From: Elusimicrobiota bacterium
GTDB taxonomy: Bacteria; Elusimicrobiota; Elusimicrobia; UBA1565; UBA9628
Length of the DNA: 64,000 nt
Assembly: GCA_016218575.1 (NCBI GenBank)
Contig: JACRDN010000019.1
Coordinates: 332,302-396,301, forward strand
Reading direction: 5' to 3'
Position 1 is the stretch's first letter, and every line of letters begins with the position of its first letter. The translations under genes and the position numbers were made by a program. The notes under the pieces are model-generated. The model was given only the letters and a program-made list of their open reading frames with translations, searched no databases and was not told the DNA's origin. This document shows, piece by piece, positions 12,619-30,420 of this stretch.

Positions 12619-15600
12619 CGGAGCACCACCACTTTATGGACCTTTTTTTGCCCGTTGAACTCCAAAGTCGCCAAGTACACCCCGCTCGCCGCCGGCCGGC
12701 CGTAGAGATTCACTCCGCCCCAGATCATGAGTCCAGAGCCGTTGGCTTGGCCCTCAAAGACCAATTCCCCCCTCAAAGTGAACACCCGCACCCTGGCCCC
12801 GGCCGGCATCTGCGAGAAGGTGACGTAGCCATGGCCTCGGTTCGGCATGAAGGGGTTCGGGAAAACCCGAGCCTGCTCCACCGAGGTGGAGGGGCTCACC
12901 CGCACCACCTGGAATTGGGAGAAATGGTTGAGCTGGACCGTCATGCGGTGGTTGACGCTGTCCACCACGGTCTGCAGGGGCACGCAGGCTCCGGAGTCAT
13001 CCACCCGCATGAACGTGGCTTCGCCGGCTGGGATGGGCACCGCCGCGAGCTCCGCATCGGCGAAGGAGAAGGTCAGGAAAACCGGGCCGACCGGCTGCAT
13101 CGTGGGCCGTGGGGTGATGGAAAGCCCGATATTGGCCCCGCCGGCTCCGCAGGGAGAGGGCGGGACCGTGAAAGAGGAGACGGTCACGAAGACGTCCGAG
13201 GCAAAGGACTTGGCCGGCACCGTGAGCTTGACGTAGCGGGAGTTGCCGAGGGTTCCTTCGATTATGTTGTTCTGCGTCGTGAGGACCGTGCCACCCAGGG
13301 ACCCGGCCGGGACTCCCCCGTTGAAGGGTGCCGTGGTGACGGTGTTGGAGAAGGCGCTTGCCAGGCCGCTTAAGTTCTGGGCCGCCACGCGTATGGAGAT
13401 CGTCGTGCCGGTCAGGAGGCTCGAGAGGACCAAGGCGGTCTGGTTCGACTGCTTGGAGAAGGCGAGCGGCGTCGAGACGTGCGTCACGAAGTTATCCGTG
13501 GAATAGGTCACCTGGTAGGTGGCCGAGGAGGAGTTGTTGTTGGAGTTCCAGGAAACCGAGATGGAGGATGGCGTGGTCCCCAGGACCGTCAGGCTGGTCG
13601 GGGGATTGGCCAAGGTCGAGGTGGTGCCTAGGACGAGATAGCTGGAGGCCACGCTATCGCCATTAAGCGACCGGACCTTCACGTCGAAGGGCATGGCGGG
13701 AGAGGCCAGGTCGGCGACGCTGGCGGAGAATCCCGTCGTGGTGATGGTGCTCACCACGGCGTCTCCCGAGGAGACGATCATCTCGAAGGTGGTGCCGGCT
13801 GGGTTCTCGTTGGTGTTCCATATGCCCGTAAACGAGCCCGTGGTGACGTTCAGTATGGGCGGGCTTACGGCCAAGGGGATGGCCGACAAGGTGAAGGTGG
13901 TGGCAGAGGCCGATAAGGGCCCCTCCCCGGCCTGGGTCACCGCGCTAACGTACACGGAGCGGACCGAGTTCGTGGAGAGCCCTGTGTCTTGGAAGACGTT
14001 GGTGTTGGGGGTGGCGATCACCGCACCCGTCGTCGAATTATAGACCTTGTAGAAATTGACTCCCCCCGGATCCACCCAGCTCCACTGTATGCTCGTGGTG
14101 GTGAGCCCCGTTCCGGCCAACCCCGCCACGGGGGTCCTGGTTTGTGTGGCGACGACCACGCTGAAGTTGGAGGCGGTGCCGGCGCCGTTGAAGGATCTCA
14201 GGCGCAGATAATAGGTCGTGTTCGACTGCAGTGGAGCAAGAATTACGTTGTCCGTGGTGAGCCCCGAGAGGCTAGGCACCGGGGTCGAGAAGGAGAGCGC
14301 GAAGTTGTCCGTCGAGAGCGACACCTCGTAGATGGTCCCCTGGCTGTTGCCGTTGACGTTCCATGAGAGAAGAAGGCTTGTGGATGTTACCGAGGTCACG
14401 GCCACGCTCACGGGGACGGTCGAAAGCGTGAAGAAGGTGGCCGATGTGGTCAACGGGCCGTCGCCCGTGAGGGTGTAGGCCCCCACCAGGAGCTGGGCCG
14501 TGGCGTTGGGGGCTAGGCCCCGCTGGGTGTAGGTCGGGGTGGCCGCGCCCACGGTCGAGATGAAGACCCCGGTGGTGGCGGAGAAGACCTCGTAGCCGTC
14601 CATCGTGGTCTGGCCTTGGATGTCGGTCCAACTCCAAGTGATGGTCGTGGAGGTGATGGAAACCGTGTTGGCGGTCACGCTGGTCGGGCCCACCGTGGGC
14701 TTGGGGGGGCCGGCTTGGACGAGCACGCTGTCGGAGAATTGGGAGTTGGAGGCGGAGCGCAGGTGGTACCATCCGTAAGGAAGGAAGGTCCCGCCGGGGG
14801 AGGGCAGGGGGCTCTGCGCCGCCGAGGGCATGAGCACCGTCATGGAGGAATCTGTCTTGGTCCAGAGGTTTGGATCGGGGGTCTTGCTGTAGACCCTCGT
14901 GGACAGGTCGAGGGCGAAGCCCCCGGAGCCTTGGGAGCTCGTGCCTCCGGAACCGTCCACCGCCTGCAAAACCGCGCGAGGATGGAAATGGGAGGAGTTC
15001 CCGCTGGCGGGCCCCCCGCTCGAGGCCTCCGTGATTCCCTGGAAATTCCGCCCGCTCAAAGTGACGAAGTCCCCTCGGTTGAAGGGAGAAAGGTCCACCG
15101 CGGTGATGGTGGACTGCCTGGCGCTGGGAGGGGCCCCGAGGCTCGCGGCGTCCGGCGAGCCCGTGAAGTAGAGTCGCTCGGCGCTCGACAAGAAGGCGGC
15201 CCCGCTATAGCCTCCGATGGCGTAAAGATTCCCGTCCTTGGCCAGGCTCGTCGTGTGGTAGCCCCTGGAGGCGGACATGTTCCCGCTCACCTGCCAGGAC
15301 GAGGTCGCCACGTCGAAGGTCTCGCAGCTGTTCAAGGTGTTGCCCAAGGCCTGCGCGCCGCCCGCGATGATGACGTTGCCGTTGGGCAGCAAGGTCGCCG
15401 TGTGGCTGAAGCGCGGCGTGTTCAAGGGCCTCCCCGGGACCAAGGCCCCGGTGTCGGTCCATGTGTTGGCCACGGGATCATATATTAAGGAATAGGCGGT
15501 TTCCCCGAAGCCGTCGTTGCCCCCGGTCAAGAGGACCCGGCCGTCCATGAGCAAGGTGGCTGAGTGGGAATGCGAGCGCTTGGCGCTGCCAGCGCAGGGA

Positions 15601-18299
15601 TCTGCCGCGTTATTGAGGCAGGTGGCCATGGTCCAGGCGCCGGTGACGGGGTTGTAGATCTCATTGCGCGCGAGCACCCCGCTCGCGTTGACCCCTCCGC
15701 TCACCAGGATGCGTCCGTCCTGCAGGAGGGTGGACGTGTGCAGGGCCCGGGCCAGGTTCATGCTGCTGATGGGCCGCCAGGCCCCGGCCGTGGAGTAGTA
15801 GATCTCGGCCTCGTTATGGTAGGTCCCCCCGTTGTAGCCGCCGGTCGCCAGGACGTTCCCATCGGCCATGAGGACCGCCGCATGGTTGTCCCGGGCCGTG
15901 TTCATGGACTGGGTGGGAACCCAGATCCCGGTGGCGGGGTAGTAGATCTCGGCTCCCGCGGTGGCCCCGGTGCTCGTCGCGTTGGTGGTGAAGCCCCCAG
16001 AGACCAGGACCCGGCCGTTGGGGAGCAAGGTGGCCGTGTGAAGATCGCGGACCTCCAGCATCGGCCCGGTTGCGGAGAAGCGCGCGGTCACCGGATCGAA
16101 AAGCTCGGCCGAGCGCAAGACGTTGGGGCCGTTGGACCCGCCCGCCACCAAAATATTTCCATTGGGGAGCATGGTGGTGGTGTGGTTTCCCCTAGAGTTG
16201 GTCATGCCGGCGCTGTTGGCCGTCCAGGCTCCGAGCCTGGGGATGACGCGCGCCGATCCCCGGGGCGAGGAGGAGGTGCAGTCGGTCTGGGAGGTTTGGG
16301 AGTCGGTGCAGCTCAGTCCCCCCAGGAGGGAGATGTCTCCGCTGGGGGTGAGAGTGGCGCTATGCCCGTGCTTCTGGCTGCCGAACCCCTGCACCGTGAA
16401 GCTCCAGGCGTTGCTTTGGGGGTTGAATTTGGTCAGATCGCTGAACATCATGCTGCGTATGACCACCGTGGCGACGTCCACCGTGAAATTGGTTTGGCTT
16501 AGGTTCACGCGGCTGGCCACGAACTTGAGCGTGCCGGAAAGCCCCGTGACCACCCGGCCGGCCACGTTGAAGGGAGTGACCTGGTTCGTGGTCGTGCTCA
16601 CGTCCACCGTACCCCTCAAATTGATGAAGGATGCGTTGAAGGAGAACTCGGCTCCCCCCGCCCCGTCGTCCACCACCGTGGGAGCCCCCGGGATCTGGGT
16701 GAAGCCGTCGGTGAAGGAGAGGGTCGCGATGTTGGTGATGGAGAGGCTGCCCGCGGTGAGGCGCAGGCTGCCGCTGCTGATGGCGGCTCCCAGGAAAATC
16801 TTCGAAATCGGGACGGTCAAGGTCCCGGTCAGTATGCTCGCGGTGAGTATCGTCCCGGGCGAGTTGTCCACGGTCATGGGGGAAGCGGTGAACCCCACCG
16901 TGCTGTTGGCGATCAAGGTGAAATTGTCGGGGCTTACGGTGACGTCTGGGGTGAAATACTGGCCCTGCATCGGAGACAGCGAGACGGTGCGGCTGATCTG
17001 ACCGCAGGTCCCGGCTACAGGATCGCAGAAGACCCTGGTTCCGGCGAGACTCGCGCGCAGGCCCACCGCCGGGTCCGCGGTGCCGGCCCGGAGAATGGCC
17101 TGGCCCGTGACTCCCGAGTAGGTAAAGTTGACGATGGGCGAGGACATAAGGACCTCTCCCTGTTCTATGATCCCGGTGACCGGGACGGAGAGCGGGAAGT
17201 TGAGGTTGACGGCAAGATACCCGCCTGTCACGTTCATGGTGGACAGCACGTTGCCGAAGGAGCCGGTGACCGAGGAGCCGTCCACCAAGGTCGCCGAGGC
17301 GTTGACGAAGGTGGTGGTGATGTTCCCGAGGCCTCCGAACATGGCCAACTGTCCGTCGTTTTGAAGCGTCATGCTGTGGCCGAGGCTGCGCACCAGCATG
17401 GACGGGGCGGGCACCATGGAATCGGACACGGGGTCGTAGAGCTCCGTGGTTTGGAGGATTCCCTTGTTGGCCAGGGAGTCCCTGCCGTTGAAGCCCCCGG
17501 TGATGAGGACCTTGCCGTTGCCCATGAGGTTGGCGGTGTGATAGGCCCTTTGCTGGATGAGGTTCTTTCCGGCCTTGAAAGTCCCGGAAGTGGGATTGTA
17601 TATCTCGGTCGTGACGAGGTAGGGGTAGGTGGCGTTGTTGGGATCCCAGCCGCCGGCGAGGAAAACCCTGCCGTCGGGAAGCAAGGTCGAGGTGTGGAGG
17701 GACCGGGCCGAGGCCAGGGAGCCCGTGGCGGAGAAGGAGCCGAAGGCTCCCCCGCAGGTAAACGAGGGGTTGGTGGGCGCGTTGTAGAGCTCGCAGGAGC
17801 TGTTCATGGCGCCAGAGCCTCTTTGTCCGCCGCAGACCAGGACCTTGCCGGTCTTGAGCAAGGTCGCGGTGTGGTTGAACCTTCCGTTGACCTCGGTCAT
17901 GGCCATGGAGGCGGACCAGCAGTTCTGGGACGGGTCGAAGACCACGGCGTCGGTGCGTACCCCCCCGGAGTTCACGCCGCCGACGATCAGGACCTGGCCC
18001 GTGGGAAGCATGGTCGCGGTGTGGGAGGCCCGGGCGACCGCCATGGCGGTCGCGTCCAAAAAGTCGTTTTGGCGCTCCAGGGAGATCTGGACGCCGGTCA
18101 AGGCCGTGGTGAGGTCGCCCGGGGCCGTCATTCCGCCCACGACGAGGATGTTGCCGTCGGGCAATAAAGTCGAGGTGTGGGCGAATCTAGAGGTAAACGC
18201 GACGGCGCCGGCCCTGGAGGCGCTCAATCCCAATGAAAAGCCCAAGCCGAGGGCCGTCCATAAAAATGCCGAGCGCCAAGTCGTCGGGCGAAGATGCAT
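12615..18299 (-). CDS. Giant secreted/surface protein (1894 aa): two Kelch beta-propellers, Fn3-like repeats and a T9SS-type C-terminal sorting domain
   Basis: It has a signal peptide (MHLRPTTWRSAFLWTALGLGFSLGLSASRAGA). There are at least 12 Kelch blades with the recurring HTxTLLPxGxVLVxGG pattern, in two clusters. At least five Fn3-like repeats follow (TSLLLSWNVNG...YEV, IQWSWVDPGGVNFYKVY, ISVSWNSNNN...YQVTY). The C-terminus VFPNPF...GVYLATLEFNGQKKVHKVVVLR matches the Por-secretion-tail / CTD type-A pattern. Confidence 0.85.
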   Translation of the reverse strand: MHLRPTTWRSAFLWTALGLGFSLGLSASRAGAVAFTSRFAHTSTLLPDGNILVVGGMTAPGDLTTALTGVQISLERQNDFLDATAMAVARASHTATMLPTGQVLIVGGVNSGGVRTDAVVFDPSQNCWSASMAMTEVNGRFNHTATLLKTGKVLVCGGQRGSGAMNSSCELYNAPTNPSFTCGGAFGSFSATGSLASARSLHTSTLLPDGRVFLAGGWDPNNATYPYLVTTEIYNPTSGTFKAGKNLIQQRAYHTANLMGNGKVLITGGFNGRDSLANKGILQTTELYDPVSDSMVPAPSMLVRSLGHSMTLQNDGQLAMFGGLGNITTTFVNASATLVDGSSVTGSFGNVLSTMNVTGGYLAVNLNFPLSVPVTGIIEQGEVLMSSPIVNFTYSGVTGQAILRAGTADPAVGLRASLAGTRVFCDPVAGTCGQISRTVSLSPMQGQYFTPDVTVSPDNFTLIANSTVGFTASPMTVDNSPGTILTASILTGTLTVPISKIFLGAAISSGSLRLTAGSLSITNIATLSFTDGFTQIPGAPTVVDDGAGGAEFSFNASFINLRGTVDVSTTTNQVTPFNVAGRVVTGLSGTLKFVASRVNLSQTNFTVDVATVVIRSMMFSDLTKFNPQSNAWSFTVQGFGSQKHGHSATLTPSGDISLLGGLSCTDSQTSQTDCTSSSPRGSARVIPRLGAWTANSAGMTNSRGNHTTTMLPNGNILVAGGSNGPNVLRSAELFDPVTARFSATGPMLEVRDLHTATLLPNGRVLVSGGFTTNATSTGATAGAEIYYPATGIWVPTQSMNTARDNHAAVLMADGNVLATGGYNGGTYHNEAEIYYSTAGAWRPISSMNLARALHTSTLLQDGRILVSGGVNASGVLARNEIYNPVTGAWTMATCLNNAADPCAGSAKRSHSHSATLLMDGRVLLTGGNDGFGETAYSLIYDPVANTWTDTGALVPGRPLNTPRFSHTATLLPNGNVIIAGGAQALGNTLNSCETFDVATSSWQVSGNMSASRGYHTTSLAKDGNLYAIGGYSGAAFLSSAERLYFTGSPDAASLGAPPSARQSTITAVDLSPFNRGDFVTLSGRNFQGITEASSGGPASGNSSHFHPRAVLQAVDGSGGTSSQGSGGFALDLSTRVYSKTPDPNLWTKTDSSMTVLMPSAAQSPLPSPGGTFLPYGWYHLRSASNSQFSDSVLVQAGPPKPTVGPTSVTANTVSITSTTITWSWTDIQGQTTMDGYEVFSATTGVFISTVGAATPTYTQRGLAPNATAQLLVGAYTLTGDGPLTTSATFFTLSTVPVSVAVTSVTSTSLLLSWNVNGNSQGTIYEVSLSTDNFALSFSTPVPSLSGLTTDNVILAPLQSNTTYYLRLRSFNGAGTASNFSVVVATQTRTPVAGLAGTGLTTTSIQWSWVDPGGVNFYKVYNSTTGAVIATPNTNVFQDTGLSTNSVRSVYVSAVTQAGEGPLSASATTFTLSAIPLAVSPPILNVTTGSFTGIWNTNENPAGTTFEMIVSSGDAVVSTITTTGFSASVADLASPAMPFDVKVRSLNGDSVASSYLVLGTTSTLANPPTSLTVLGTTPSSISVSWNSNNNSSSATYQVTYSTDNFVTHVSTPLAFSKQSNQTALVLSSLLTGTTISIRVAAQNLSGLASAFSNTVTTAPFNGGVPAGSLGGTVLTTQNNIIEGTLGNSRYVKLTVPAKSFASDVFVTVSSFTVPPSPCGAGGANIGLSITPRPTMQPVGPVFLTFSFADAELAAVPIPAGEATFMRVDDSGACVPLQTVVDSVNHRMTVQLNHFSQFQVVRVSPSTSVEQARVFPNPFMPNRGHGYVTFSQMPAGARVRVFTLRGELVFEGQANGSGLMIWGGVNLYGRPAASGVYLATLEFNGQKKVHKVVVLR

Positions 18300-19050: not shown

Positions 19051-19578
19051 CTAGCGCAATCCTCCAACCCTGTCAACCAAGCCTTGGGCGCGCAAAACCA
19101 GCTCCGCGGCCTCCCTGACCGCGGCCTCTCCCCCTCGGCTGCGGGTGACCCAGTGGGCCTTGGCCTTGACCTCGGGCCTGGCGTTGGGCACGGCCACGGC
19201 CAGGCCCGCGCGCTCCAAGACCGGGATGTCGGGCCAATCATCCCCCATGTAGAGGACTTCCTCGGCCTTGACCCCGGCCTCCTTCAGGATTTGATCAAAA
19301 ACATTCAGCTTGTCGAGGCGGCCTTGATGGATGTAGGAGACCTTGACGAGCTTCAGGCGTTCCTCCATGCCCCGGGAATTTCGCCCGCTGATGACCCCGG
19401 TCTTGATCCCGCATTGGGCGAGCCAGCCGAGAGCGATGCTGTCCTGGGCGTTGACCCCCTTGAGCTCCACCAGATTCCCGGAGGTGTCCACGAAGTGGTA
19501 GATGAGGCCGTCGGTGAGCACTCCGTCGATGTCGAGCAGGAAGACCTTGACGCGCCGGGCCCGCTCCTTGATCGTCAA
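19051..19578 (-). CDS. kdsC: 3-deoxy-D-manno-octulosonate-8-phosphate phosphatase (HAD family)
   Basis: FLLDIDGVLTDG (DxDGVLTDG motif), GVISGR, MGDDWPDIPV. Size (175 aa) and motifs fit KdsC. Confidence 0.85.
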   Translation of the reverse strand: MTIKERARRVKVFLLDIDGVLTDGLIYHFVDTSGNLVELKGVNAQDSIALGWLAQCGIKTGVISGRNSRGMEERLKLVKVSYIHQGRLDKLNVFDQILKEAGVKAEEVLYMGDDWPDIPVLERAGLAVAVPNARPEVKAKAHWVTRSRGGEAAVREAAELVLRAQGLVDRVGGLR

Positions 19579-22370
19579 GTCGGCCTCGTTTTAATTTTCA
19601 AGGCGTTGGCGACGCTGGAGAGGTCCCCCGCCGCGATGGACTCGAGCGCCAGGAGCAGGACGCGGCGACCGGCTTTCTTCAGGGCTTCGAAGTCGCCCCG
19701 AGCCTGGGCGCTGATCAAGGTCCCGAAGTGATAGGGACGGCCGGGAATTTCCAGGGCCGCTGGCCTAGCTTCGCAAATCATGATAAACACGCCCTTGGAG
19801 GGTCCCCCTTTATGGAGTTGGCCCGTGGAATGCAGATAACGGGGGCCATGCTCGAGGCAGACCGGGGCCGAGGTGAGAGCGCTGATTTGAGCGCGCAGCC
19901 CCTCCAGACTCCGGCGTTGGGATTCGGGATCGAGGAAGGAGAGAAGAGCCGCGTAATCCCCGGAGTTCAGGCGGCCCAAGTGCTTGGCGAGGACCTCGGA
20001 TAGGGGAGGGGACGAATCCGTCCACGCCTCGGCCAGGGGCGCGTCCGCCCACGCCGAAACCCCGCCCCAGCGCCAAGTCGGGCTCTCCTTGGGCAGAGCC
20101 CCCTTTTTCAGGGAGCTTAAAAGTTTCCGGGTCTGGTCCTTTGCGGACTGCACATCGGGTTGGTCGAAAGGATTGACCCCCATCAAATGCCCCGCCGCGG
20201 CCGTGGCGATTTCCCAAAGGAGGAACTGCGCGCCCAAATCGTAGACGTCGGCCATTTTGAGGGTGAGGACCGGTCTTCCCGCTTTCTCCAGGGCGAGCAT
20301 TTTCCCTTGAAGGGGTAGGTCCCCGGCCGCCGCGTCGAGGCTCACGTGGACGAAGAGGCGGTCGCCGCCGTAGGAGTCGTTCTTAGCCGGGGCTTCGCCC
20401 ACCACCGGCACGATTCCCTGGCCCTCCTTGCCGGTGGACTCCGCGATCAGTTGCTCCAGCCACAGGCCGAAAGGCTCGAGGCCGGGGGGCAGGCACAAAG
20501 TGAGCTTGTCCTGCCCCTTGGCGGCGTGGGCCGCCAAAGCCGCTCCCAGCCTTAGGGCGAGATTTTCCTCGGTGGCCTTGGCGGGAGAGAGCTTCTTGGC
20601 CAAATCTCGGGCCCGGCCGAGGAGCCTTTCAATGTCGATGCCCATGAGGGCCGCCGGCACCAGCCCGAAATAAGAAAGGGCGGAGAATCTTCCCCCCACA
20701 TCCGGGGGATTGAGGCAGGTCTTGCGAAAGCGCAGCTTGACGGCGAGATTCTCAAGGGAGGTGCCCGGGTCCGTGATCGCCATGAATTGGCGGCCGGCCC
20801 TGTCTCCGGAAAGCTTGGAGACCCGGTCGTAGAAATAGTCGAGCAGACAGCCGGGCTCGATGGTGGAGCCGGACTTGCTCGAGATCACGAAGAGCGCGCG
20901 CTTGAGGTTGAGCCGCGACTCAAGCCCCGCCACGGCCTTGGGGTGCGTGGAGTCCAGTATCTCCAGCTTCGGAAATCCTTTTCCCCGGGGAAAAGCGGTC
21001 CTGAAAACTTCGCAGACCAGGCTCGACCCCCCCATTCCCAGGACCACCGCGGTCTCGAATCCCTCCTTGACGATCTCGGCGGCGCAATTGCGGATGGGAC
21101 CTAGGGCCCCCGACATGCTGTCTGGCAAGGTGAGCCAGCCCAAGGAGTTCCGAATTGCCTTCTGATGGGCCTTGTCCGTTTTCCAAAGCGTGGGATCCTT
21201 TTGCCAGAGGCGGCTTGAGAACTGGGCCTTGGCCAGGCTGTCGAGGCCAGCACCCTCCGCCTGGACCTCTGCCTTAAGGAGCTCCCGCTTGGCCGAGATC
21301 TGGCCCATCAAGGTTTCGAAGGATTTCGAGAAGGCCTTGAGGCCCTCCTCCTCGAGATCTCGGCAGATCTGGGCCATATCCACCCCGAGCTTGCCGAGCC
21401 CCTCCCATTGCTCCCGGGCCTCGAGCGGGTCTTCCTCGAGACTGGGGCGGCAGGCGCCATGGTCGTAGAACGCCTCCAAGGTGGCCGGGGGCATGGTGTT
21501 GACGGTGTCCGCCCCGATGAGCTCCTCGACGTAGAGGACGTCCCGGTAATTGGGATTCTTGGTTCCCGTGGAGGCCCAGAGGAGGCGCTGGACCTGGGCG
21601 CCGGCTCGCTTCAAGACGGCGAAGCGTTCGGATGCGATTTGGCGCTTGTAGATCTGGTAGGCGAGTTTGGCGTTGGCGATGGCGGCCTTGCCCGAGAGAG
21701 CCCGTGCCTCGGGGGTCCCCAGTGCTGCAAGCCGCTTGTCCGCGGCGGTGTCGATGCGGCTGACGAAAAAACTCGCCACAGAGGCGACTTTGGATAGGTC
21801 TTTCTTCTGCGCAAGCCTCTTCTCGAGCCCGCGCAGATAGGCCGCGAGGGTCTTGGCGTAGCGCTCCTGGGAGAAAAGCAAGGTGATGTTCACCGGCACC
21901 CCGTCGGCGATGGCTTTCTCTACGGCGAGAAGCCCTTCCTCGGTGCCTGGGATCTTGATCATGACGTTGGGGCGGCCCACCAGGCGGTGCAGGCGCAGGG
22001 CTTCCTTGTGGCTGGCCTCGGCCTGCCGCGCCAAATGGGGAGCAAGCTCGATGCTGACGTAGCCGTCTTGTCCCTCGCTCTCCTCGTAGACCGGCTTGAA
22101 CAGGTCGGCGGCCGCGCGGATGTCCTCCACGGCCATGGTCTCGAACATCTCCTGGGGCGAGCGCGTCCCGCGGGTCATTTCCTGGATGGCAGGGTCGTAG
22201 TCGTTGGAGGAGCCGATGGCCTTCTCGAAAATCGTCGGATTGGAGGTGACGCCCTTGAGGCCCCAAAGCTCCGCCTTGCGCGCGAGTTCTCCAGAAACAA
22301 GCAGCCCCCGGCTGATATTGTCGTACCAGACGCTCACCCCGAAGCGCCCCAATTCCCGTAAAGGATTCAT
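19575..22370 (-). CDS. Bifunctional transaldolase / glucose-6-phosphate isomerase
   Basis: The N-terminal roughly 370 aa are transaldolase (SVWYDNISR...VTSNPTIFEKAI). The C-terminal half is PGI (...GGRFSALS..., sugar-isomerase fold). The 931-aa length fits known tal-pgi fusions. Its stop overlaps the kdsC start by 4 bp. Confidence 0.85.
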   Translation of the reverse strand: MNPLRELGRFGVSVWYDNISRGLLVSGELARKAELWGLKGVTSNPTIFEKAIGSSNDYDPAIQEMTRGTRSPQEMFETMAVEDIRAAADLFKPVYEESEGQDGYVSIELAPHLARQAEASHKEALRLHRLVGRPNVMIKIPGTEEGLLAVEKAIADGVPVNITLLFSQERYAKTLAAYLRGLEKRLAQKKDLSKVASVASFFVSRIDTAADKRLAALGTPEARALSGKAAIANAKLAYQIYKRQIASERFAVLKRAGAQVQRLLWASTGTKNPNYRDVLYVEELIGADTVNTMPPATLEAFYDHGACRPSLEEDPLEAREQWEGLGKLGVDMAQICRDLEEEGLKAFSKSFETLMGQISAKRELLKAEVQAEGAGLDSLAKAQFSSRLWQKDPTLWKTDKAHQKAIRNSLGWLTLPDSMSGALGPIRNCAAEIVKEGFETAVVLGMGGSSLVCEVFRTAFPRGKGFPKLEILDSTHPKAVAGLESRLNLKRALFVISSKSGSTIEPGCLLDYFYDRVSKLSGDRAGRQFMAITDPGTSLENLAVKLRFRKTCLNPPDVGGRFSALSYFGLVPAALMGIDIERLLGRARDLAKKLSPAKATEENLALRLGAALAAHAAKGQDKLTLCLPPGLEPFGLWLEQLIAESTGKEGQGIVPVVGEAPAKNDSYGGDRLFVHVSLDAAAGDLPLQGKMLALEKAGRPVLTLKMADVYDLGAQFLLWEIATAAAGHLMGVNPFDQPDVQSAKDQTRKLLSSLKKGALPKESPTWRWGGVSAWADAPLAEAWTDSSPPLSEVLAKHLGRLNSGDYAALLSFLDPESQRRSLEGLRAQISALTSAPVCLEHGPRYLHSTGQLHKGGPSKGVFIMICEARPAALEIPGRPYHFGTLISAQARGDFEALKKAGRRVLLLALESIAAGDLSSVANALKIKTRPT

Positions 22371-22381
22371 ATCTGTGTGTT

Positions 22382-22468
22382 GGTGTCAGACTTTTAACTT
22401 TTGCAACTTATACAACTTATTAGGACTATAAAAGTTCAAAAAGTTGCAAAAGTTAAAAGTCTGACACC
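22382..22468. repeat. Perfect 28-bp inverted repeat (arms 22382-22409 and 22441-22468, 31-nt AT-rich spacer) between rpiB and tal-pgi
   Basis: The left arm is ggtgtcagacttttaacttttgcaactt and the right arm aagttgcaaaagttaaaagtctgacacc, an exact reverse complement. The element is about 30% GC in a 65%-GC genome. The right arm overlaps the last five codons and stop of rpiB. Confidence 0.8.
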
Positions 22469-22908
22469 AGTCGTTCTAAGGCGATGACTTTGTCGCGGCG
22501 GCGGACGTGGCGCTCCGCGTTGGAGAACCTGGCCTTGAGCCAGACCCTCACGATTTCAAGCGCAAGTTCCGGGCCGATCACCCGCGCGCCCAGGCAAAGG
22601 ATGTTGACATCGTCGTCCTCCACGCCCTGGCGCGCCGAGAAGGTGTCATGGCAGAGGCCGGCCCGCGCGCCGCGCACCTTGTTGGCCGCGACACAGGCGC
22701 CTACCCCGCTTCCGCAAATCATGATGCCGCGCTCGGCCTTGCCGGAGACCACGGCCAAGGCCACCGCCTTGGCGTAGTCGGGATAATCGGCGGGCTCGGG
22801 CCCGTCCACCCCGAGGTTCAAGATTGCGTGTCCCTCCTTGGGAAGGATTCCCTCGAGCCGCTTCTTGAGTTCGTAGCCGCCGTGGTCGGCGCCTAAAGCG
22901 ATCCGCAT
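22453..22908 (-). CDS. rpiB: Ribose-5-phosphate isomerase B
   Basis: MRIALGADHGGYELK...ICGSGVGACVAANK...ILCLGARVIG is the canonical RpiB/LacAB family sequence, about 150 aa. Confidence 0.9.
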   Translation of the reverse strand: MRIALGADHGGYELKKRLEGILPKEGHAILNLGVDGPEPADYPDYAKAVALAVVSGKAERGIMICGSGVGACVAANKVRGARAGLCHDTFSARQGVEDDDVNILCLGARVIGPELALEIVRVWLKARFSNAERHVRRRDKVIALERLVSDF

Positions 22909-23636
22909 GCCCGATATTTTATCTTTTTCAAGGCTGAGAGGAAATCCCGGCGCAGGCCTGCGTCCCGGAAAAGGCCTCCGTGGAGCGCGATGGGAACGGG
23001 AGCGCTAAGGCGCAGCCTTGACGCCAAGGCGCGCGCGAGCGCGGCGAGTTCTTCGGCGGCCCTGCGCCGCAGGGCCCGCGCCTCAGGATTTTTTGCGGCC
23101 AAGGCCAGCACGCGCCGGGCGAGCCCCGCCGTCTGGCGCCTGCCGCGGCGGGCCCGCGCCGCGGCAGCTTTGGCAAGGAGAGCCTTGAGCTTGGGGCTCT
23201 CCAGCGCTTGGCTTGCGATCCAAAAGCCCGAGCCCTCGTCTCCGAGTATGGGGCCGAACCCTCCGGCTCTGGCCGAACGGCCCTCGGCGTTCCTGCCGAA
23301 CGCCACCGAGCCGGTTCCCGCGACGACCACGATCCCGGGCTTTTCCCCGAAAGCCTGCTCGAAGGCCAGTTCGAAATCCGGAATAACTCGTGTGGTCCTT
23401 GCCAGCGAATGAAGTCCCGCCGCGAGCTGCCTGCGGGCCGAGGCCTTGCCAAGACCGGTTCCGCCCACGGTGATGGAATCGAGTTTTCCCCATTTTCCCA
23501 CATGCTTGACCTGCCTCAATGCGGCGGGGAGTTCGTTCCACGGCACGGCGGGAAGCCGCATGCGCCGAGGTCTGCTCCCTGGAGAGTGAACCGCGATCCT
23601 GAGCCAAGTCCCGCCCAGGTCTATGACGAGGCGCAT
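22893..23636 (-). CDS. BadF/BadG/BcrA/BcrD-type ATPase / N-acetylglucosamine kinase-like
   Basis: MRLVIDLGGTWLRIAV (phosphate-1), VVVAGTGSVAFG (phosphate-2) and GDEGSGFWIA are ASKHA-fold sugar-kinase motifs. Confidence 0.65.
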   Translation of the reverse strand: MRLVIDLGGTWLRIAVHSPGSRPRRMRLPAVPWNELPAALRQVKHVGKWGKLDSITVGGTGLGKASARRQLAAGLHSLARTTRVIPDFELAFEQAFGEKPGIVVVAGTGSVAFGRNAEGRSARAGGFGPILGDEGSGFWIASQALESPKLKALLAKAAAARARRGRRQTAGLARRVLALAAKNPEARALRRRAAEELAALARALASRLRLSAPVPIALHGGLFRDAGLRRDFLSALKKIKYRACGSL

Positions 23637-24307
23637 CAGGGAGCCAGGGCCGGCCCCTTCTCTTTCTCGCCGAAAAGCCGGCGCAGGTTCTTTTCCAAGG
23701 CCTGGACCCAGGACAGGGCGCTTTCCCGCGCGGGCAGGGGCTGGCTTGGGTCCATGATCTTGCGGATCATGGCTTGAACCAGGTCGCGACGTGCGGCCAC
23801 GCTCTGGTTCAAGCGAATGCGGACCAAGGCCTCCCTCCCGGCCTGGGCCTCGGCGACGGAAACCTCGACCCGCCCAAGCACTAAGATGTCCCCGGGCTCC
23901 ACGGAGAGGGATTCATGGCGGTCAAGCTCCCTAGGAAACGGAAGCTGGTATTCCTGGCCTTGGGCCGAGATGCTCATGAGCGTTCGCCGGCCTCCGAAGA
24001 GCGAGCGCTCGGGGGCGAGGCGGTAAATCCCAGGCTCCACCTGGTAAAGATAGGACTGCCCCGGCTCCAAGGCGAGCCGGTAGATTTCGGAGCCGCTTTC
24101 CAGATTGAGGATGAATTTGCCGGAAGAGGCCTCCCCGGAGAGCTCCGTTGATATCTTGAGCCCGACCAGGAAGCCCCCGACGTTGCGGCTGGGCGGCTCG
24201 TGGAGCTCGGGGATGGTCCCGCGGCAGGCGGCGGCCAGACAGCAGAGGCTAATAATCCATTTGCCCGAGCTCAACGCCCTTGAAATACGCCTTGATGATT
24301 TCCTCAT
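23636..24307 (-). CDS. Hypothetical lipoprotein
   Basis: It has a lipoprotein-type signal peptide MRKSSRRISRALSSGKWIISLCCLAAAC and no recognisable catalytic motifs. It overlaps the upstream SpoIID gene by 59 nt. Confidence 0.5.
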   Translation of the reverse strand: MRKSSRRISRALSSGKWIISLCCLAAACRGTIPELHEPPSRNVGGFLVGLKISTELSGEASSGKFILNLESGSEIYRLALEPGQSYLYQVEPGIYRLAPERSLFGGRRTLMSISAQGQEYQLPFPRELDRHESLSVEPGDILVLGRVEVSVAEAQAGREALVRIRLNQSVAARRDLVQAMIRKIMDPSQPLPARESALSWVQALEKNLRRLFGEKEKGPALAP

Positions 24308-26282
24308 AGCTTTGTCCCGCCTCGGCCCGTCCCATGGCCCCGGATTGGCACAGCCCTACCGCGTGTCCCCAGCCCCCGCCGTGGAAAACCAAGGTCTCGG
24401 GCCTGGCGGCTCCCTTTTTGTACTCTGCGTCCACGATGAAGAGCGTGCTTCTCAAGGAGCCGATGCCGAGGAGATTGCGTATCTGCATCTCGGAATCTAT
24501 CTTGACCTTGCGCTGGGAGCCTTGGATCAGGATGGCGTTGACGTTTCCCGATGCGGAGCGGCGCAGGACCCGCAGGGAGAGAAGCTTGCCGGTCTTGTAG
24601 CGCCGGGCTATCTTCTCCTCAAGATCCTTGAAGGGGATGATCCGGGTCCAGCGGAAATGGGACGGGTGTGCGTAATTGGAGGGCTTGCAGAAGGCGGCGG
24701 GCCAGCCCAAAAGCCATCGTCTAAGCTCCCACGGAGAATCCACGGTTGCAGGCAGCCCCTGGCCGTCCGGGATGGAGGACCAGTACGAAACGTCTCCCCA
24801 GCCCGTGAGGTCGCTTCCGTTCTGGGTGTGCCCCCCGCAGTTGGAGGAATAAATGACATGGGCGACCTTGCCGTTGAAAACCGCGATGCGCCCGCGGGTG
24901 GCCTCCACGACCTCGCGGGAGCGCTGGCTCTCGGCGCGCACCCCGGCGTAGACCTGGCAATGCTGGTCGTCGCAGAGGTCGTAGCCCTCCCGGCGGTGGC
25001 GCCGGGAGATTTTTTGGATGAAAAGGGCGTGGCTTCTGGCGATCACGGCCTGGGCCTTCAGGGCCTCGAGCGGCGATCCGATGGGCATTTCGGCCGCCAC
25101 CACCCCGTGGGTGTAGTTCTCGAGATCGAGGGCGTTGACGATTCTAAGCCTCCCCTTGAACGGAGATATCTCGACGACACCGCGCAGGAGCTTGCCATCC
25201 ACCGCAATCAGGCCCTTGGGGCTCTGGGGCCTGACCACGACGGCTTGGCGCCTTTGGAGCATGGAGCGTCCCGAGGAATCATGGAGCGCTAGGAGCGCGC
25301 CTTTCTTGCCGCGCCTGATCCGCGCCTGCCAGGCCTCCCCGGTCTCGCCCTTCAGAAGTTTTTTGCCCGACGAGGCGTCCACGACCAAGAAGCTCGTCGT
25401 GGCCTCGAATTTAAGGAACTGCCGAGGCCTGGGCTTGCCCAACGCGGTGCTGCCGATGTTGATTCTGAGCTTGGGAACGCTCGCGCCCCCCGAGTCCGAG
25501 TCCACGATGTAGGGCTCGGGGCGGTGCAGGCCGGAGGGAGTGAGAATATCGGCGGGGCGGCGCGTCAAGCGCGGGCGGACTTTTTTGAGCCAGGCCGTAA
25601 AGCGCCGACTCAGGGGCTCGGCGTCCAGAATCTTCGAGAGTTGGCGCCAGGCTTGGTTGTAGTCCTTTTGCTTGAAATAGGCCCGGGCCAGGGGATCGCG
25701 GCCCTCAACGAAATAGGAGTCCGCCAGCACCGCGCGGCGGTAGGCCTCGGAGGCCTTGGCGGTGTTCCCCATCTTCTCGGAGGCCTGACCCTGGTAATAG
25801 GAGACGAGGTTGAGAAGGGGTGCGGCGGCCTGGGCCTTGTCGAGAGCCTCCAGGGCTTTCTTCGGGAGCCCCAAGTCGAGCTCGGCTCGCGCTAGTCCCA
25901 GCCACGCGTAAGCCGCCTCGGGGTCGCGCCGCGCGGCCTCGTAAAGCGCGGCGGAGGCCCCCTCGAAGTCCCCGGCCCGCCAGCGGGCCCAGCCCATGGC
26001 GGTGAGGACTTCGGGCTCCTCGGCGGATATCCTCGCGGCCCGGCGGAACCACTCCGCGGCTTTCTTGGGGTTGCCCAGCTCTTCTAGGACCACGCCCCCG
26101 TTGAGCCAGGCCTTCACTGTGGTCGAGCTTTCCTCGAGCGCCTTGCCGTAGCGGTCCAGGGCCTTGGGCTGCTGGCCTTGAAAATAGAAAGCGTTGCCTT
26201 GGGCGACGAGTTCGTCGGCGGAGGCGTCGGCGCGAGGGCTCAGGGTAAACAGCAGCGCCGCCCCGAGCAGGAAATTTCGCAT
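24249..26282 (-). CDS. TPR-repeat plus SpoIID/LytB-domain protein
   Basis: It has a signal peptide and N-terminal TPR-like repeats. The C-terminal domain has GYDLCDDQHCQVY and HGGGWGHAVGLCQSGA, the SpoIID/LytB (amidase-enhancer) hallmarks. Confidence 0.8.
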   Translation of the reverse strand: MRNFLLGAALLFTLSPRADASADELVAQGNAFYFQGQQPKALDRYGKALEESSTTVKAWLNGGVVLEELGNPKKAAEWFRRAARISAEEPEVLTAMGWARWRAGDFEGASAALYEAARRDPEAAYAWLGLARAELDLGLPKKALEALDKAQAAAPLLNLVSYYQGQASEKMGNTAKASEAYRRAVLADSYFVEGRDPLARAYFKQKDYNQAWRQLSKILDAEPLSRRFTAWLKKVRPRLTRRPADILTPSGLHRPEPYIVDSDSGGASVPKLRINIGSTALGKPRPRQFLKFEATTSFLVVDASSGKKLLKGETGEAWQARIRRGKKGALLALHDSSGRSMLQRRQAVVVRPQSPKGLIAVDGKLLRGVVEISPFKGRLRIVNALDLENYTHGVVAAEMPIGSPLEALKAQAVIARSHALFIQKISRRHRREGYDLCDDQHCQVYAGVRAESQRSREVVEATRGRIAVFNGKVAHVIYSSNCGGHTQNGSDLTGWGDVSYWSSIPDGQGLPATVDSPWELRRWLLGWPAAFCKPSNYAHPSHFRWTRIIPFKDLEEKIARRYKTGKLLSLRVLRRSASGNVNAILIQGSQRKVKIDSEMQIRNLLGIGSLRSTLFIVDAEYKKGAARPETLVFHGGGWGHAVGLCQSGAMGRAEAGQSYEEIIKAYFKGVELGQMDY

Positions 26283-26331
26283 TGACGGCAGCTAGTCTAG
26301 CAAAAACGCCGTAGCGCTTGGGCCTATGCGC

Positions 26332-27096
26332 TCATAAACGCCCGAGCTCCTTCTTGAGCTGATTGGGGAGCTGTTGGATGATAGCCCAATGGCTCTTAGG
26401 CAGGAAAGCCTTGAGTTCGTTGTAGAGGAACTTCTTGTCGACCGCCTCAAGCCTTTCTAAGACCTGCTTGCGCCGCGCCGCGATCGACTTCCTTTCCCCC
26501 ATCGGCTTGCGCAGGATGAAGTAGAGGTCGTAGAAGTCCCGTGGCTTGGCGCGCGAGAGAAGTGCGTCGACCTTCTCGTCAACGAGCAATTTCTCCGGCA
26601 GGCCGTAGACGTTGTAGTTCGGCACGAGGCCCGACGTAACCACGGAGAGCTCTCCCTTAAGGGGCTTCTGGCGCGTGGAGGCCTGCAGGAGGATCTCGAT
26701 CTCCCACGGTCCCATGGGGCCGCGCACGATGCCGAAGTAGCCGCCGCTCGTGGGCTTGGACTCGACGAGCGCCAGGCCTGAGATCTCCTGGGCGACGCGC
26801 TCGGCCGTCCGCTCGATCACGGCTTGCGTCTTGTGAAACGGCATGGCCGCGGTGAAGTCGAGGTCCTCGGAGAAGCGCGGGCTCTGGTAGACGATTCGCA
26901 GGGAGGTCCCGCCCTTGAACATAAGGCCGTCCGAGGCTGGGTCCGCGTACAGATGGGAGAGGAATACGTTCTGCGCGTACTCGCGCGCGACATTTTCATC
27001 GGTCGTGTGGAATTTTACCGCGAGCTGCTTGATCTCATCTGCCGATAGCATGGCCCACCCAGGAGAGGAAGGTCTTAGGCTTGAATAGGCGCGCAT
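26332..27096 (-). CDS. AbiEii/AbiGii-family nucleotidyltransferase toxin (DUF1814, type IV TA)
   Basis: LMFKGGTSL...RFSEDLDF is the NTase signature of AbiEii. A possible shorter start lies at 27051 (MLSADEIK). It is paired with the upstream AbiEi. Confidence 0.75.
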   Translation of the reverse strand: MRAYSSLRPSSPGWAMLSADEIKQLAVKFHTTDENVAREYAQNVFLSHLYADPASDGLMFKGGTSLRIVYQSPRFSEDLDFTAAMPFHKTQAVIERTAERVAQEISGLALVESKPTSGGYFGIVRGPMGPWEIEILLQASTRQKPLKGELSVVTSGLVPNYNVYGLPEKLLVDEKVDALLSRAKPRDFYDLYFILRKPMGERKSIAARRKQVLERLEAVDKKFLYNELKAFLPKSHWAIIQQLPNQLKKELGRL

Positions 27097-27625
27097 GCTG
27101 GAGAAGCTTCTTGCGGTCCACCTTTTTCCAGGCGATGCGCTCGTTGAGAGCCCGTTTCTTAAGGAACACTAGGAACAGGTAGTCGCACAGCGCTTTCTCG
27201 GGCTCGGCCATCAGCACCAGCTCGTCGCCGACTTTGCAGGGACGGTAGCCGGTGAAAGCCTCCTTCTTGATGGAATGGTACACGTAGCCGAAGTCGTCGG
27301 TCTCGATCTCCTTGGTGCGGCGCGTGGTGGCGGAGGTCACGGCATAGACCGTCTCGGGGATCAGGTGGTAATGCGCCAAGGCGCTCTCGTAGGAGATGTA
27401 GGACGGGCGATAGAGGGCGTTGGCGATCGCCATAGCCCCCGGCTTGCTCCAGGGCAGGCAATAGAGTCCGTTTCTGAGGCGGACGACGGCGCCCTGCCTG
27501 CTGCAGCGCTCGAGCGTCTTATAAGCGGTGGGCAAAGATAGCCCGAGCGTCCGCCGGAAGTCGGCGGTCGTGAAGAGACGGAGGCCCTTTTGGGCCAGCT
27601 TTTTCTGAATATTGAGTGCAGTCAT
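27035..27625 (-). CDS. AbiEi-family antitoxin / transcriptional regulator
   Basis: It has a wHTH-like N-terminus (FTTADFRRTLGLSLPTAYKTLERCSRQGAVVRLRNGLY) and a C-terminal PSYISYESALAHYHLIPE region typical of AbiEi_4 antitoxins. It overlaps the AbiEii gene. Confidence 0.7.
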   Translation of the reverse strand: MTALNIQKKLAQKGLRLFTTADFRRTLGLSLPTAYKTLERCSRQGAVVRLRNGLYCLPWSKPGAMAIANALYRPSYISYESALAHYHLIPETVYAVTSATTRRTKEIETDDFGYVYHSIKKEAFTGYRPCKVGDELVLMAEPEKALCDYLFLVFLKKRALNERIAWKKVDRKKLLQHARLFKPKTFLSWVGHAIGR

Positions 27626-27843
27626 GATTCGTACAATTGTGTACAGAAACCTGCTACGCTCATTTTAACAGGTCCGGGCTCCCGTTTCAAGGCGCAGAAG
27701 AACCCTGTAGGAGCCTTTAATCGAAAAACCTATTTGAGTATTCGGACCTCGGAGCCGTTTTTAGGCTCTTTTTTGGGCCCTTTGGGAGGTATTGCGTGAC
27801 GCTGAAGTTCGCCGATTTGTCGACGAGAATCGGGTGTGAAATC

Positions 27844-27917
27844 TGGAGCGGGCGATGGGAATCGAACCCACGTCCGAAGCTTGGGAAGCTTCTATTCTAC
27901 CATTGAACTACGCCCGC
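27844..27917 (-). tRNA. tRNA-Gly(CCC)
   Basis: The minus-strand sequence GCGGGCG-TA-GTTC-AATGGTA-GAAT-A-GAAGC-TTCCCAA-GCTTC-GGAC-GTGGG-TTCGATT-CCCAT-CGCCCGC-T-CCA folds into a cloverleaf. The acceptor stem is a perfect 7 bp. The anticodon loop TTCCCAA gives anticodon CCC. The T-loop is TTCGATT and CCA is encoded. Confidence 0.85.
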
Positions 27918-28877
27918 TAAGGACTGCAGAGCCCTCATTTTAGCGGGATTGAGGCCTTGCGTCAAGGCCGGTTCTTTGGAGAAGGGCAGGGTCAAAGCGA
28001 ACTCCTCGCTCCACTGGTACTCCGGCTTCTTGAAATCATGGCGCACCTTCAGTTTCACCAGGTACGAGTTCTGTTCGTTTAATTCCTGGTAGAGCGGTAT
28101 CAATAAGACGTTGCGCGGCAGATTGGCGAGATCCCTCTTGCCTTTGACCATGCCGAAAGCCATGGAGCTGCCGGCGGGAATCCTCTGGGCCTCGTACTGG
28201 ATGTCGGAGATCATTTTCTTGTCCAAGACCTCCGGCTTGATGGAGACGGACATGATTCCTTTTCCGCTTTCCTTGTCGTTGTAGGCCCGGAAAACCATGT
28301 TGTCTTGGATGAAGCGGAGCAGTTCTTCATCGGGTTTCGGAGCCGGCGGGGTCGGGTCGGGCCTGCCTTCTCCCTTGGCCAGTTGGAACACGTAGGAATC
28401 GGGCATTTCCCGGTTTTGGAAGCGGTGAACCGGGGGTTCCTGATAGCTGTAATGGGAGGACTTTACCTCCGCGGCGTAGGCATCGTAGCGGGAGAAGGGA
28501 TTTCCCGCGCCATGGTGGTAGGTGAGCTTGATCTCCTCGCTCTGTCCTTCCCGCAAGGCGGCATCGGCCGGGAATTGGAGCGCGACCTTCACCGGCTTCT
28601 CGTAGTCCCGGTACTCGTAGTCCCGGCAAACTCTCGTGGGATAACAGTATTGATGGCAGTGCCAATGGCATCCGCCGTGGGGGGCCGGAAGGCAGGAGCA
28701 ATGCTCGCGGCATTCGGTCTCCCAATGGCATCTCGTTTCGATTCGATAGACCCATAGCTTTAAATCGAACTCAACGCGGTCCTGGCCGGTGCGGCGCGCG
28801 GCGCTAAACTCATCGGCCCGGGCGTTCCCTGTCAATAGAGCGCAGAACAGTCCGGCGCAGGCAATTAGGTTTTTCAT
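27897..28877 (-). CDS. Cys/His-rich secreted hypothetical protein
   Basis: The start is set at the ATG at 28877, preceded by aggataaaa (SD), giving a signal peptide MKNLIACAGLFCALLTGNARA. A cluster CHWETECREHCSCLPAPHGGCHWHCHQYCYP suggests metal or disulfide binding. The 3' end overlaps the tRNA 5' end by 21 nt. Confidence 0.55.
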   Translation of the reverse strand: MKNLIACAGLFCALLTGNARADEFSAARRTGQDRVEFDLKLWVYRIETRCHWETECREHCSCLPAPHGGCHWHCHQYCYPTRVCRDYEYRDYEKPVKVALQFPADAALREGQSEEIKLTYHHGAGNPFSRYDAYAAEVKSSHYSYQEPPVHRFQNREMPDSYVFQLAKGEGRPDPTPPAPKPDEELLRFIQDNMVFRAYNDKESGKGIMSVSIKPEVLDKKMISDIQYEAQRIPAGSSMAFGMVKGKRDLANLPRNVLLIPLYQELNEQNSYLVKLKVRHDFKKPEYQWSEEFALTLPFSKEPALTQGLNPAKMRALQSLAGVVQW

Positions 28878-29059
28878 TTTTATCCTCGCGAGATAACCAA
28901 TCTGATGATATTCAAGCCCCGCTGTCAATGGAAAATGCTCGCTAGTCCTACGTTTGAAATAGGCCCTTCGACCCATGACAGTGTTGACGCGGCCGCCCTA
29001 AAACTGGTATTTGTATTTCACCGCGAATTATTCGATAAATCGCCGCATTGGGGGACGCT

Positions 29060-29671
29060 ATGGACACTCTGCAATTCGTGACGCGCTGGCTGCATGTCAT
29101 CGCCGGGATCACCTGGATCGGCCATCTTTATTTCTTCAACTTCGTCAACGTCCCCCTCCAGGCGGCCTTGGACGACGCGGGGAAAAAAGCCGTGAACCCC
29201 AAGCTCATGCCCCGCGCTTTGTGGTGGTTCCGTTGGGGCGCCATGCTCACCTTCCTGACCGGACTCCTGCTCTTTTCCCTCATCTATATGTATTTGCCGG
29301 GCGCGGGCTTCGGGCCAAACGCGCTGTTTCATGACGAGATGGGGCTGACCGACCGCGCCTCTTGGATCATGCTCGGCATGCTTTTTGGAAGCGTCATGTG
29401 GTTCAATGTCTGGTTCATCATCTGGCCCATCCAGAAAAAAATCCTCTCCGGCAAGGCGACCCCCGAGGAGTTGCCGGTGATCCGCCGCCGGGCCTACCTT
29501 GCTTCCCGCGCCAACACCTATCTCTCCGGGCCCATGCTCCTGGGGATGCTCGCCGCCAACCACATGACGGCTGGCTACACGGTGGGAGGGCTCCTGATCT
29601 GGTCCGCTTTGGCTCTCGCCGTCGTCTGGGTTGCGATCTTCCACGCCGACCGCGTGGGAACCTCGGTTTAA
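29060..29671 (+). CDS. Polytopic membrane protein (HemJ/CopD-like, uncertain family)
   Basis: There are 4-5 TM helices. The N-terminal motif RWLHVIAGITWIGHLYFFNFV (a conserved His in TM1) resembles HemJ/CopD-type heme/copper-handling membrane proteins. The ATG at 29060 is preferred over the TTG at 29048. Confidence 0.5.
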   Translation: MDTLQFVTRWLHVIAGITWIGHLYFFNFVNVPLQAALDDAGKKAVNPKLMPRALWWFRWGAMLTFLTGLLLFSLIYMYLPGAGFGPNALFHDEMGLTDRASWIMLGMLFGSVMWFNVWFIIWPIQKKILSGKATPEELPVIRRRAYLASRANTYLSGPMLLGMLAANHMTAGYTVGGLLIWSALALAVVWVAIFHADRVGTSV

Positions 29672-29693
29672 CACAAGTTTAGAACAGAAAAAT

Positions 29694-29722
29694 CCCTGCA
29701 TTTTAATATGCAGGGGTTTTCT
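29694..29722 (+). terminator. Rho-independent terminator
   Basis: ccctgcat-tttaat-atgcaggg is an 8-bp GC-rich stem with a 6-nt loop, followed by gttttct. It is preceded by aaaaat, so it could work in either direction. It lies 22 nt after the stop of the 29060-29671 gene. Confidence 0.6.
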
Positions 29723-29835
29723 ATTCTAGCGTCTGATGATCAAGGAGTTTTAGCGAGCTCCAAGTCGCCAACCGCGCTGATGTTTGTATTGGTTGCGGTC
29801 AACTATACGGTTCATCCGAGAAACGGGAGAAGAAT

Positions 29836-30372: not shown

Positions 30373-30420
30373 ATGTCCCGGAGCGCGGGGGATGAAAAGC
30401 AGGCCTTCTGCCTGGCGTTT

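Follow-up and report, generated by a model that had tools for sequence, protein, structure and literature searches.

The junction between rpiB and tal-pgi in this Elusimicrobia genome carries an 89-bp AT-rich foldback sequence, located at positions 22381-22469 of the window (the whole 64-kb stretch of DNA that was analysed). With a probability of about 0.55, this sequence is an orphan MITE-like element of foreign, mobile-element-like character, which was acquired recently and in this Elusimicrobia lineage only, and which is probably neutral; it entered rpiB within its last four codons, which are not conserved.

Anatomy and gene setting of the foldback element

The element is bounded by two perfect arms of 29 nt, recognized as an exact 29-mer match between both strands. 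The left arm (TGGTGTCAGACTTTTAACTTTTGCAACTT, 22381-22409) constitutes the 3' arm in the mRNA, which is read from the minus strand, while the right arm (22441-22469), its exact reverse complement, constitutes the 5' arm and holds the end of rpiB, including its stop codon. The first-pass annotation had described exact 28-nt arms with a 31-nt spacer at 22371-22468; the exact complementarity and the 31-nt spacer (22410-22440) were retained here, with the arm length corrected to 29 nt. The span was likewise adjusted, its end having been placed 1 nt short and its start 10 nt too far to the left, as 22371-22380 represents the spacer ahead of the tal-pgi ATG. The boundaries used here were set by the outermost complementary bases and by the finding that excision restores the rpiB frame. 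Within the central 31 nt, nine more positions per side are partly paired with three mismatches in total, leaving a 13-nt loop (22419-22431), and the extended arms of 38 nt (22381-22418 and 22432-22469) are paired at 35 of 38 positions (92% complementarity).

The arms themselves possess an internal repeat structure. Three AAAAGTT-type repeats with 9-bp spacing (22430-22458) are mirrored in the opposite arm, and, on the mRNA strand, four copies of the motif RACTT on one side (element positions 9, 16, 25 and 34) face four copies of AAGTY on the other (positions 52, 61, 70 and 77), with a spacing of 7 to 9 bp within each arm. The termini read 5'-TG...CA-3', each arm beginning with TGGTG, and a stop codon is present in all six reading frames. 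The GC content of the element is 30.3% compared with 62.9% for the 64-kb window, in agreement with the value of about 30% reported earlier, although the background had then been put at 65%.

No other local inverted repeat in the window comes close to the element in length, and none of 100 dinucleotide-preserving shuffles produced a match to it. Its predicted folds are also exceptional, with energies of -52 kcal/mol as RNA (z = -9.7) and -33.8 kcal/mol as DNA (z = -11.75), and in neither case was any of 200 shuffles as stable. The view that such a palindrome is very unlikely to arise by chance was thereby upheld, and chance is excluded as an explanation of the inverted repeat. The predicted RNA fold leaves the region of the tal-pgi ATG unpaired. 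Among the inverted repeats of the window, the element is followed in prominence by a 34-bp palindrome (ATCCACAAAAATTTCCCGGGAAGTTTTTGGGGAT, 50357-50390) with overlapping 22-nt arms of 91% complementarity, situated just inside the 5' end of a DUF192 ORF (50329-50865, plus strand).

All genes around the element are encoded on the minus strand, in the order TPR-SpoIID protein (24249-26282; Pfam SpoIID), hypothetical protein (23636-24307), BadF/BcrAD-type ATPase (22893-23636; Pfam BcrAD_BadFG), RpiB (22453-22908; 151 aa; Pfam LacAB_rpiB, E = 4e-50, residues 3-141), Tal-Pgi (19575-22370; 931 aa), HAD-family (KdsC-like) hydrolase (19051-19578), glycogen-binding-module protein and a 1,894-aa Kelch/FN3 protein. 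Tal-Pgi is a fusion of transaldolase and glucose-6-phosphate isomerase (TAL_FSA, E = 6.5e-80; PGI, E = 1.5e-8), whose N-terminus MNPLRELGRFGVSVWYDN aligns with the starts of its counterparts in relatives. The SpoIID ... rpiB ... tal-pgi setting named in the first-pass annotation was thus confirmed by Pfam. The genes upstream of rpiB (22893-26282) are tightly packed or overlapping, and the hydrolase gene overlaps the tal-pgi stop by 4 nt. From the foot of the hairpin to the tal-pgi ATG there remains a gap of 10 nt on the rpiB side (22371-22380; ACACACAGAT on the mRNA strand), in which no Shine-Dalgarno-like motif was found. The RpiB protein of the window corresponds to MBI5631163.1, encoded on a 551-kb contig of an uncultured Elusimicrobia metagenome-assembled genome (MAG).

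Directly upstream of the SpoIID-rpiB-tal cluster, an AbiEi antitoxin/AbiEii toxin pair is encoded (26332-27625, minus strand). The corresponding upstream site in relatives is occupied by other genes, namely a response regulator in locus L005 and, further along, a PhdYeFM/ParE pair in locus L021, suggesting that this edge of the cluster gathers mobile toxin-antitoxin modules. The AbiE pair is adjoined by a run of AT-richer patches (27588-30380; GC 0.38-0.43 in 60-nt windows versus 0.63 for the window), in which the ORFs at 27897-28976, 29018-29701 and 29836-30372 returned no Pfam match, and this run is possibly a horizontally acquired island. Downstream of the cluster, the 1,894-aa Kelch/beta-propeller and FN3 protein (12615-18299, minus strand) appears to be secreted and is found in the same gene order in L005.

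The sequence was recovered in a second assembly. A Logan k-mer assembly of SRR12113407 displayed 0 mismatches to the window over 5,917 bp (21954-27870), with the element included, indicating that the element is not an assembler artefact. It is scarcely credible that a chimeric or adapter-derived insertion was introduced during sequencing or assembly; such an origin would draw on the fact that there is a single source sample, and that the Logan contig and the NCBI MAG, obtained with different assemblers, probably derive from the same read set. Both genes were nevertheless left intact, with a sensible stop and start, and inverted amplification chimeras reuse sequence from their own genome rather than novel sequence of 30% GC. 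To our knowledge, no library adapter or linker has a matching sequence.

The rpiB/tal-pgi junction in related genomes

To place the element in an evolutionary context, the rpiB junctions of seven related genomes or metagenome contigs, encoding RpiB proteins 75-82% identical to that of the window, were compared. Gene order is common to these relatives, and L005 and L006 also match the order of the upstream cluster. The AT-rich palindrome was absent from all seven junctions. In five of them (L005, L021, L022, L023 and L024), the rpiB stop and the next start overlap as ATGA, while L006 exhibits a 1-nt gap (TAA-C-ATG) and L002 a different, GC-rich insert. The first-pass annotation, which had called for this comparison of orthologous junctions, regarded a lack of conservation of the arms in close relatives as evidence against its proposals, and neither arm was found in any of the seven.

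Deletion of exactly 22381-22469 from the window sequence generates GCC TTA GAA CGA CAC ACA CAG ATA TGA, in which the TGA forms an ATGA overlap with the tal-pgi start codon and the RpiB tail becomes ...ALERHTQI, with no target bases lost. In the ancestor reconstructed in this manner, positions 22371-22380 form the end of rpiB, i.e. the codons for HTQI and the overlapping TGA. The absence of the element from relatives, combined with an excision that restores the ATGA overlap, identifies the element as a clean, lineage-specific insertion into the rpiB tail. The restored frame is in itself modest evidence, because tal-pgi starts with ATGA and a frame-correct TGA would occur by chance in one of three cases; in combination with the architecture of the relatives, it makes a strong case for insertion.

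The region affected is one in which RpiB proteins vary. Homologues are conserved up to ...VIALE[KR] and then diverge into tails of 2-10 aa, and residue 141 of 151 is the last one covered by the Pfam LacAB_rpiB domain. The five terminal codons of rpiB (LVSDF, 22470-22456) and the TAA stop (22455-22453, minus strand) are read from the element, with only base 22470, the first base of the Leu codon, being contributed by the flank; the stop lies inside the right arm, as had been observed previously. The perfect state of the arms suggests that they have had little time to decay. The 90%-identity cluster of this RpiB consists of a single member, implying that the database contains no closely related strain in which the site is empty.

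On the mRNA strand, the flanks read ...GAACGAC before the element and ACACACAG... after it, with C and A as the immediately flanking bases. No target-site duplication, in the form of a 3-11 bp repeat, was detected at the element flanks. The only candidate duplication is a 2-bp AC, a match expected by chance in 1 of 16 cases, which was rejected on the grounds that it predicts an ancestral in-frame rpiB-tal fusion and not the ATGA overlap observed in relatives. A 3-bp GAC duplication was also rejected, since it would render the element asymmetric and would similarly predict an in-frame rpiB-tal fusion.

The insert found in L002 (and identically in L003 and L004) is of particular relevance, as this locus represents the closest relative, with an RpiB protein that is 82% identical. 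Its rpiB/tal junction contains an unrelated insert of 56 bp, where an 11-bp direct repeat (AGGAGGCCCCC, at 763-773 and 819-829 within 763-829 of L002) encloses a GC-rich hairpin and the TTTT that comes after it (CCCCCGC-AACATA-GCGGGGG-TTTT). Removal of 56 bp restores ...EKSFLRRPP-TGA with a CTGA overlap. In the L002 Tal frame, no ATG, GTG or TTG is present upstream of the conserved FGVSPWYD motif. The start that the gene caller placed at 932 therefore yields a shortened protein, and translation may truly begin at a non-canonical codon. Two independent hairpin-bearing inserts in the last five rpiB codons could reflect selection for decoupling of the two genes, or equally just a site that tolerates insertions. 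It is a speculative proposition, and an improbable one, that the junction is a site of repeated hairpin acquisition and retention, where, if selected, the element would act as a recruited decoupler or processing site and would represent a duplication-free, stop-bearing foldback of an undescribed family.

The gene following rpiB, examined in L005, L021 and L022, also differs among these genomes. In some relatives it encodes Pgi only (about 540-550 aa), while in others, as in the window, it encodes the Tal-Pgi fusion (915-941 aa), implying that, within the clade, the transaldolase domain has been acquired or lost here.

Origin of the element and its possible effect on the operon mRNA

Further copies were sought at several scales, since the first-pass annotation had proposed that many copies would identify a MITE or REP family. 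No second copy was detected in the 64-kb window by exact arm matching or sensitive blastn, a scan that has the rest of the genome, including ~490 kb of the same contig, outside its range, nor was one detected by sensitive blastn across all fetched loci of relatives. The single occurrence in the readable 64 kb rules out a dense REP-like family. Scans of sequence collections, which required exact 18-20-mers, produced no match to the arm 20-mer and one chance match to the 18-mer in the GTDB representative genomes (596 Gb), six chance matches to the 18-mer without partner arm or extension in JGI metagenomes, and chance matches only in IMG/VR, where four patterns were used, including a two-arm gapped one. 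The host genome is absent from the GTDB collection, as the 20-mer did not match itself there. Comparison with plasmid and phage collections by blastn yielded nothing below an E value of about 0.07. A search of 5.8 billion proteins with peptides from the concatenated open frames of the element, aimed at proteins truncated or extended by other copies, gave no match. A parent insertion sequence would show one arm facing an inverted partner at a distance, and no such single-arm match was observed among the GTDB representatives and JGI metagenomes; the plasmid and phage collections, the window and the fetched relative loci yielded no donor sequence. The Logan contig, assembled at what we take to be k = 31, runs unbroken through the element, which argues weakly against other near-identical copies in the sample. 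The expectation of a multi-copy family was therefore not borne out in any of the collections searched.

These results bear on the possibility that the insert is a one-off piece of filler or captured foreign DNA, generated when repair or snap-back synthesis turned a short AT-rich fragment into a palindrome. Such an origin would account for the single copy in all collections searched and for the lack of a target-site duplication, and fold-back priming on a weak hairpin that already existed would leave behind just such a perfect outer palindrome around an imperfect centre. Yet the symmetric 9-bp sub-repeats and TG...CA termini look less like random filler than like the ends of a transposon, all target bases are kept on exact excision, and no donor was found, and we consider this origin unlikely.

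At the level of the operon, the insertion replaced the RpiB tail ALER-HTQI by ALER-LVSDF, with a new TAA stop supplied from within the arm, set the two cistrons 82 nt apart, thereby ending the direct ATGA stop/start coupling, and would place a 38-bp stem (29 bp perfect) into the polycistronic mRNA. The TAA lies 15-17 nt into the 5' arm, and ribosomes that terminate there should open this stem; tal-pgi translation would thus probably remain dependent on rpiB via melting of the hairpin and not via direct termination-reinitiation. By analogy with Correia and ERIC elements, the long perfect RNA duplex could plausibly be cleaved by RNase III or block exonucleases. The insertion was most likely tolerated rather than selected; it occupies one of the few sites in a packed cluster that spare every conserved domain.

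The first-pass annotation had offered an intra-operonic attenuator or RNase processing site, a protein-binding operator and a REP/MITE-like mobile element as possibilities, and had recommended folding of the RNA and inspection for a U-tract. The folding bore out a stable hairpin, while no U-tract was present after the stem on either strand, the mRNA continuing as ACACACAGAUAUG and the other strand as GTCGTTCT; the structure is consequently not an intrinsic terminator. A terminator scan called no terminator-like site at the element and, with the arms also absent in relatives, a classical attenuator or terminator is unsupported. Attenuation or processing may even so be a by-product of the insertion, given the 38-bp stem that the mRNA would carry. 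Rfam 15 returned only generic miRNA-precursor hairpin models (best score 37 bits, compared with gathering thresholds of 54-83), which were discarded as generic long-hairpin matches far below threshold.

A broader version of the regulatory explanation holds that the element, whatever its origin, is a selected intercistronic RNA element which, through processing, stability or attenuation, determines how much RpiB is made relative to Tal-Pgi (and the downstream HAD hydrolase). The very stable 38-bp stem separates two cistrons of one operon exactly at their junction, MITEs that are co-transcribed are known to influence the fate of mRNA, and selection for pairing could have kept the 29-bp arms perfect, but youth explains the arms equally well. 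Similarly, the other hairpin insert independently present in the last rpiB codons of L002 hints at recurrent evolution, although this coincidence may just mean that the tightly packed cluster accepts insertions nowhere but in the variable rpiB tail. The hairpin is represented by a single sequence, it is absent in all relatives examined, most of which keep the ATGA overlap, and neither a U-tract, a terminator call nor more than sub-threshold Rfam matches accompany it. Selection of this kind is accordingly judged improbable.

The same dyad symmetry might alternatively serve as a DNA operator or architectural site for a dimeric or multimeric protein, regulating tal-pgi from an internal promoter. 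The four short motifs per arm (RACTT/AAGTY, spaced by 7 to 9 bp) and AT-rich, A-tract-phased DNA that could bend would suit this role. Against it, no sigma-70-like promoter was predicted in 22000-23000, and hence none at the element, which lies within an operon and is absent from all seven relatives, including those with the same gene order; moreover, 89 bp is far longer than typical operators and no regulator gene is adjacent. An operator is thus very improbable. The mobile element is the best fit of the three original possibilities, supported by an insertion absent from seven of seven relatives and by its clean excision, even though neither a multi-copy family nor a duplication was found.

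Read as a MITE-like insertion, the junction provides a case that can be followed base by base, in which a palindromic sequence landing on an ATGA overlap rewrites the tail of one protein, donates its stop codon and exchanges coupling for a hairpin, while both genes survive. Should more copies exist in the genome, they would define a small Elusimicrobia foldback family without target duplication, in a phylum whose mobile elements are little described. If the hairpin alters Tal-Pgi output, this would be an example of mobile DNA having recently altered regulation in an uncultured lineage, and if it is maintained by selection rather than by permissiveness, enzyme ratios in the non-oxidative pentose-phosphate branch would be set by a newly recruited element. 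In terms of annotation, caution is warranted, as the C-terminus of RpiB in the source genome derives from the element.

Comparison with known palindromic and miniature elements

The features that are MITE-like when taken together include small size, long terminal inverted repeats (TIRs), TG...CA termini, sub-terminal 9-bp motif repeats, foreign composition and stops in all frames. With regard to size and TIRs, the element is consistent with a MITE (non-coding, under about 300 bp), being 89 bp long with TIRs of 29 nt (perfect) or 38 nt (92%), whereas the target-site duplication also expected of a MITE is lacking. Since neither a duplication nor another copy was found, the element is called orphan MITE-like and is not placed in any named family.

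Several families of sites and elements were considered and set aside. Integron attC sites are characterized by RYYYAAC and GTTRRRY cores at their outer edges and by extrahelical bases once the strand is folded; TTTTAAC and GTTAAAA in the element match these cores at six of seven positions each, but are located 11 nt inside the ends, and every base of the 29-bp stem is paired. Tn3-derived miniature elements (TIMEs) possess a ~38-bp TIR beginning with GGGG and generate a 5-bp target duplication; the 38-nt arm length fits, but the arm begins with TGGTG and the flanks show no 5-bp duplication (ACGAC versus ACACA). Sites resembling loxP or FRT were rejected on sequence or structure, judged by their generally known features.

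Intrinsic (Rho-independent) terminators and SPRITE-type repeats share with the element a stem-loop just after, or in this instance across, the stop codon. Intrinsic terminators, however, consist of a short GC-rich stem and a U-tract, in contrast to the 38-bp stem of 30% GC, without U-tract, observed here. Rickettsia palindromic elements (RPEs) are also palindromic mobile sequences within conserved protein genes that are not destroyed by them, but an RPE contains an open frame through which translation continues in frame, whereas the present element stops every frame and ends the protein. REP and BIME sequences, mobilized by RAYTs, are likewise palindromic, occur between operon genes and are known to modulate mRNA decay. 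REPs are 20-40 nt long, usually GC-rich, imperfect and present in more than 100 copies per genome (PMC2817692), none of which applies to the present element, and membership of the REP/BIME group was rejected for an element of 89 bp with a single occurrence in 64 kb.

ERIC and YPAL elements of enterobacteria and Yersinia offer a closer parallel, in that they are found at the 3' end of genes, with the upstream frame running into the element, and their hairpin alters mRNA stability. They differ in having short TIRs (7 bp of contiguous pairing), TA termini, a length of 127-168 bp and tens to hundreds of copies. Correia elements (NEMIS) of Neisseria are similar in size (about 100-155 bp, compared with 89 bp here), possess long stem-forming TIRs (~24-26 bp), are positioned beside or between genes with which they are co-transcribed, and, in their 155-bp form, also contain stops in all frames. 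They are flanked by a TA duplication and present in many copies per genome, neither of which was found here, and they belong to a different phylum. Membership of this family was rejected, as it demands a TA duplication and 5'-TA-3' termini (PMC2229807), whereas the element has TG...CA termini with C and A as flanking bases.

The expected mechanism at the mRNA level is nonetheless shared, with the stem acting as a substrate for RNase III, the duplex being a predicted one in the present case (PMC10969869, PMC2229807). Hairpins of co-transcribed Correia MITEs are cleaved by RNase III, and ERIC hairpins at the 3' ends of genes alter mRNA decay (PMC10969869, PMC2229807). The element at the rpiB/tal-pgi junction is a member of no described family and, in its likely action, resembles these co-transcribed MITEs.
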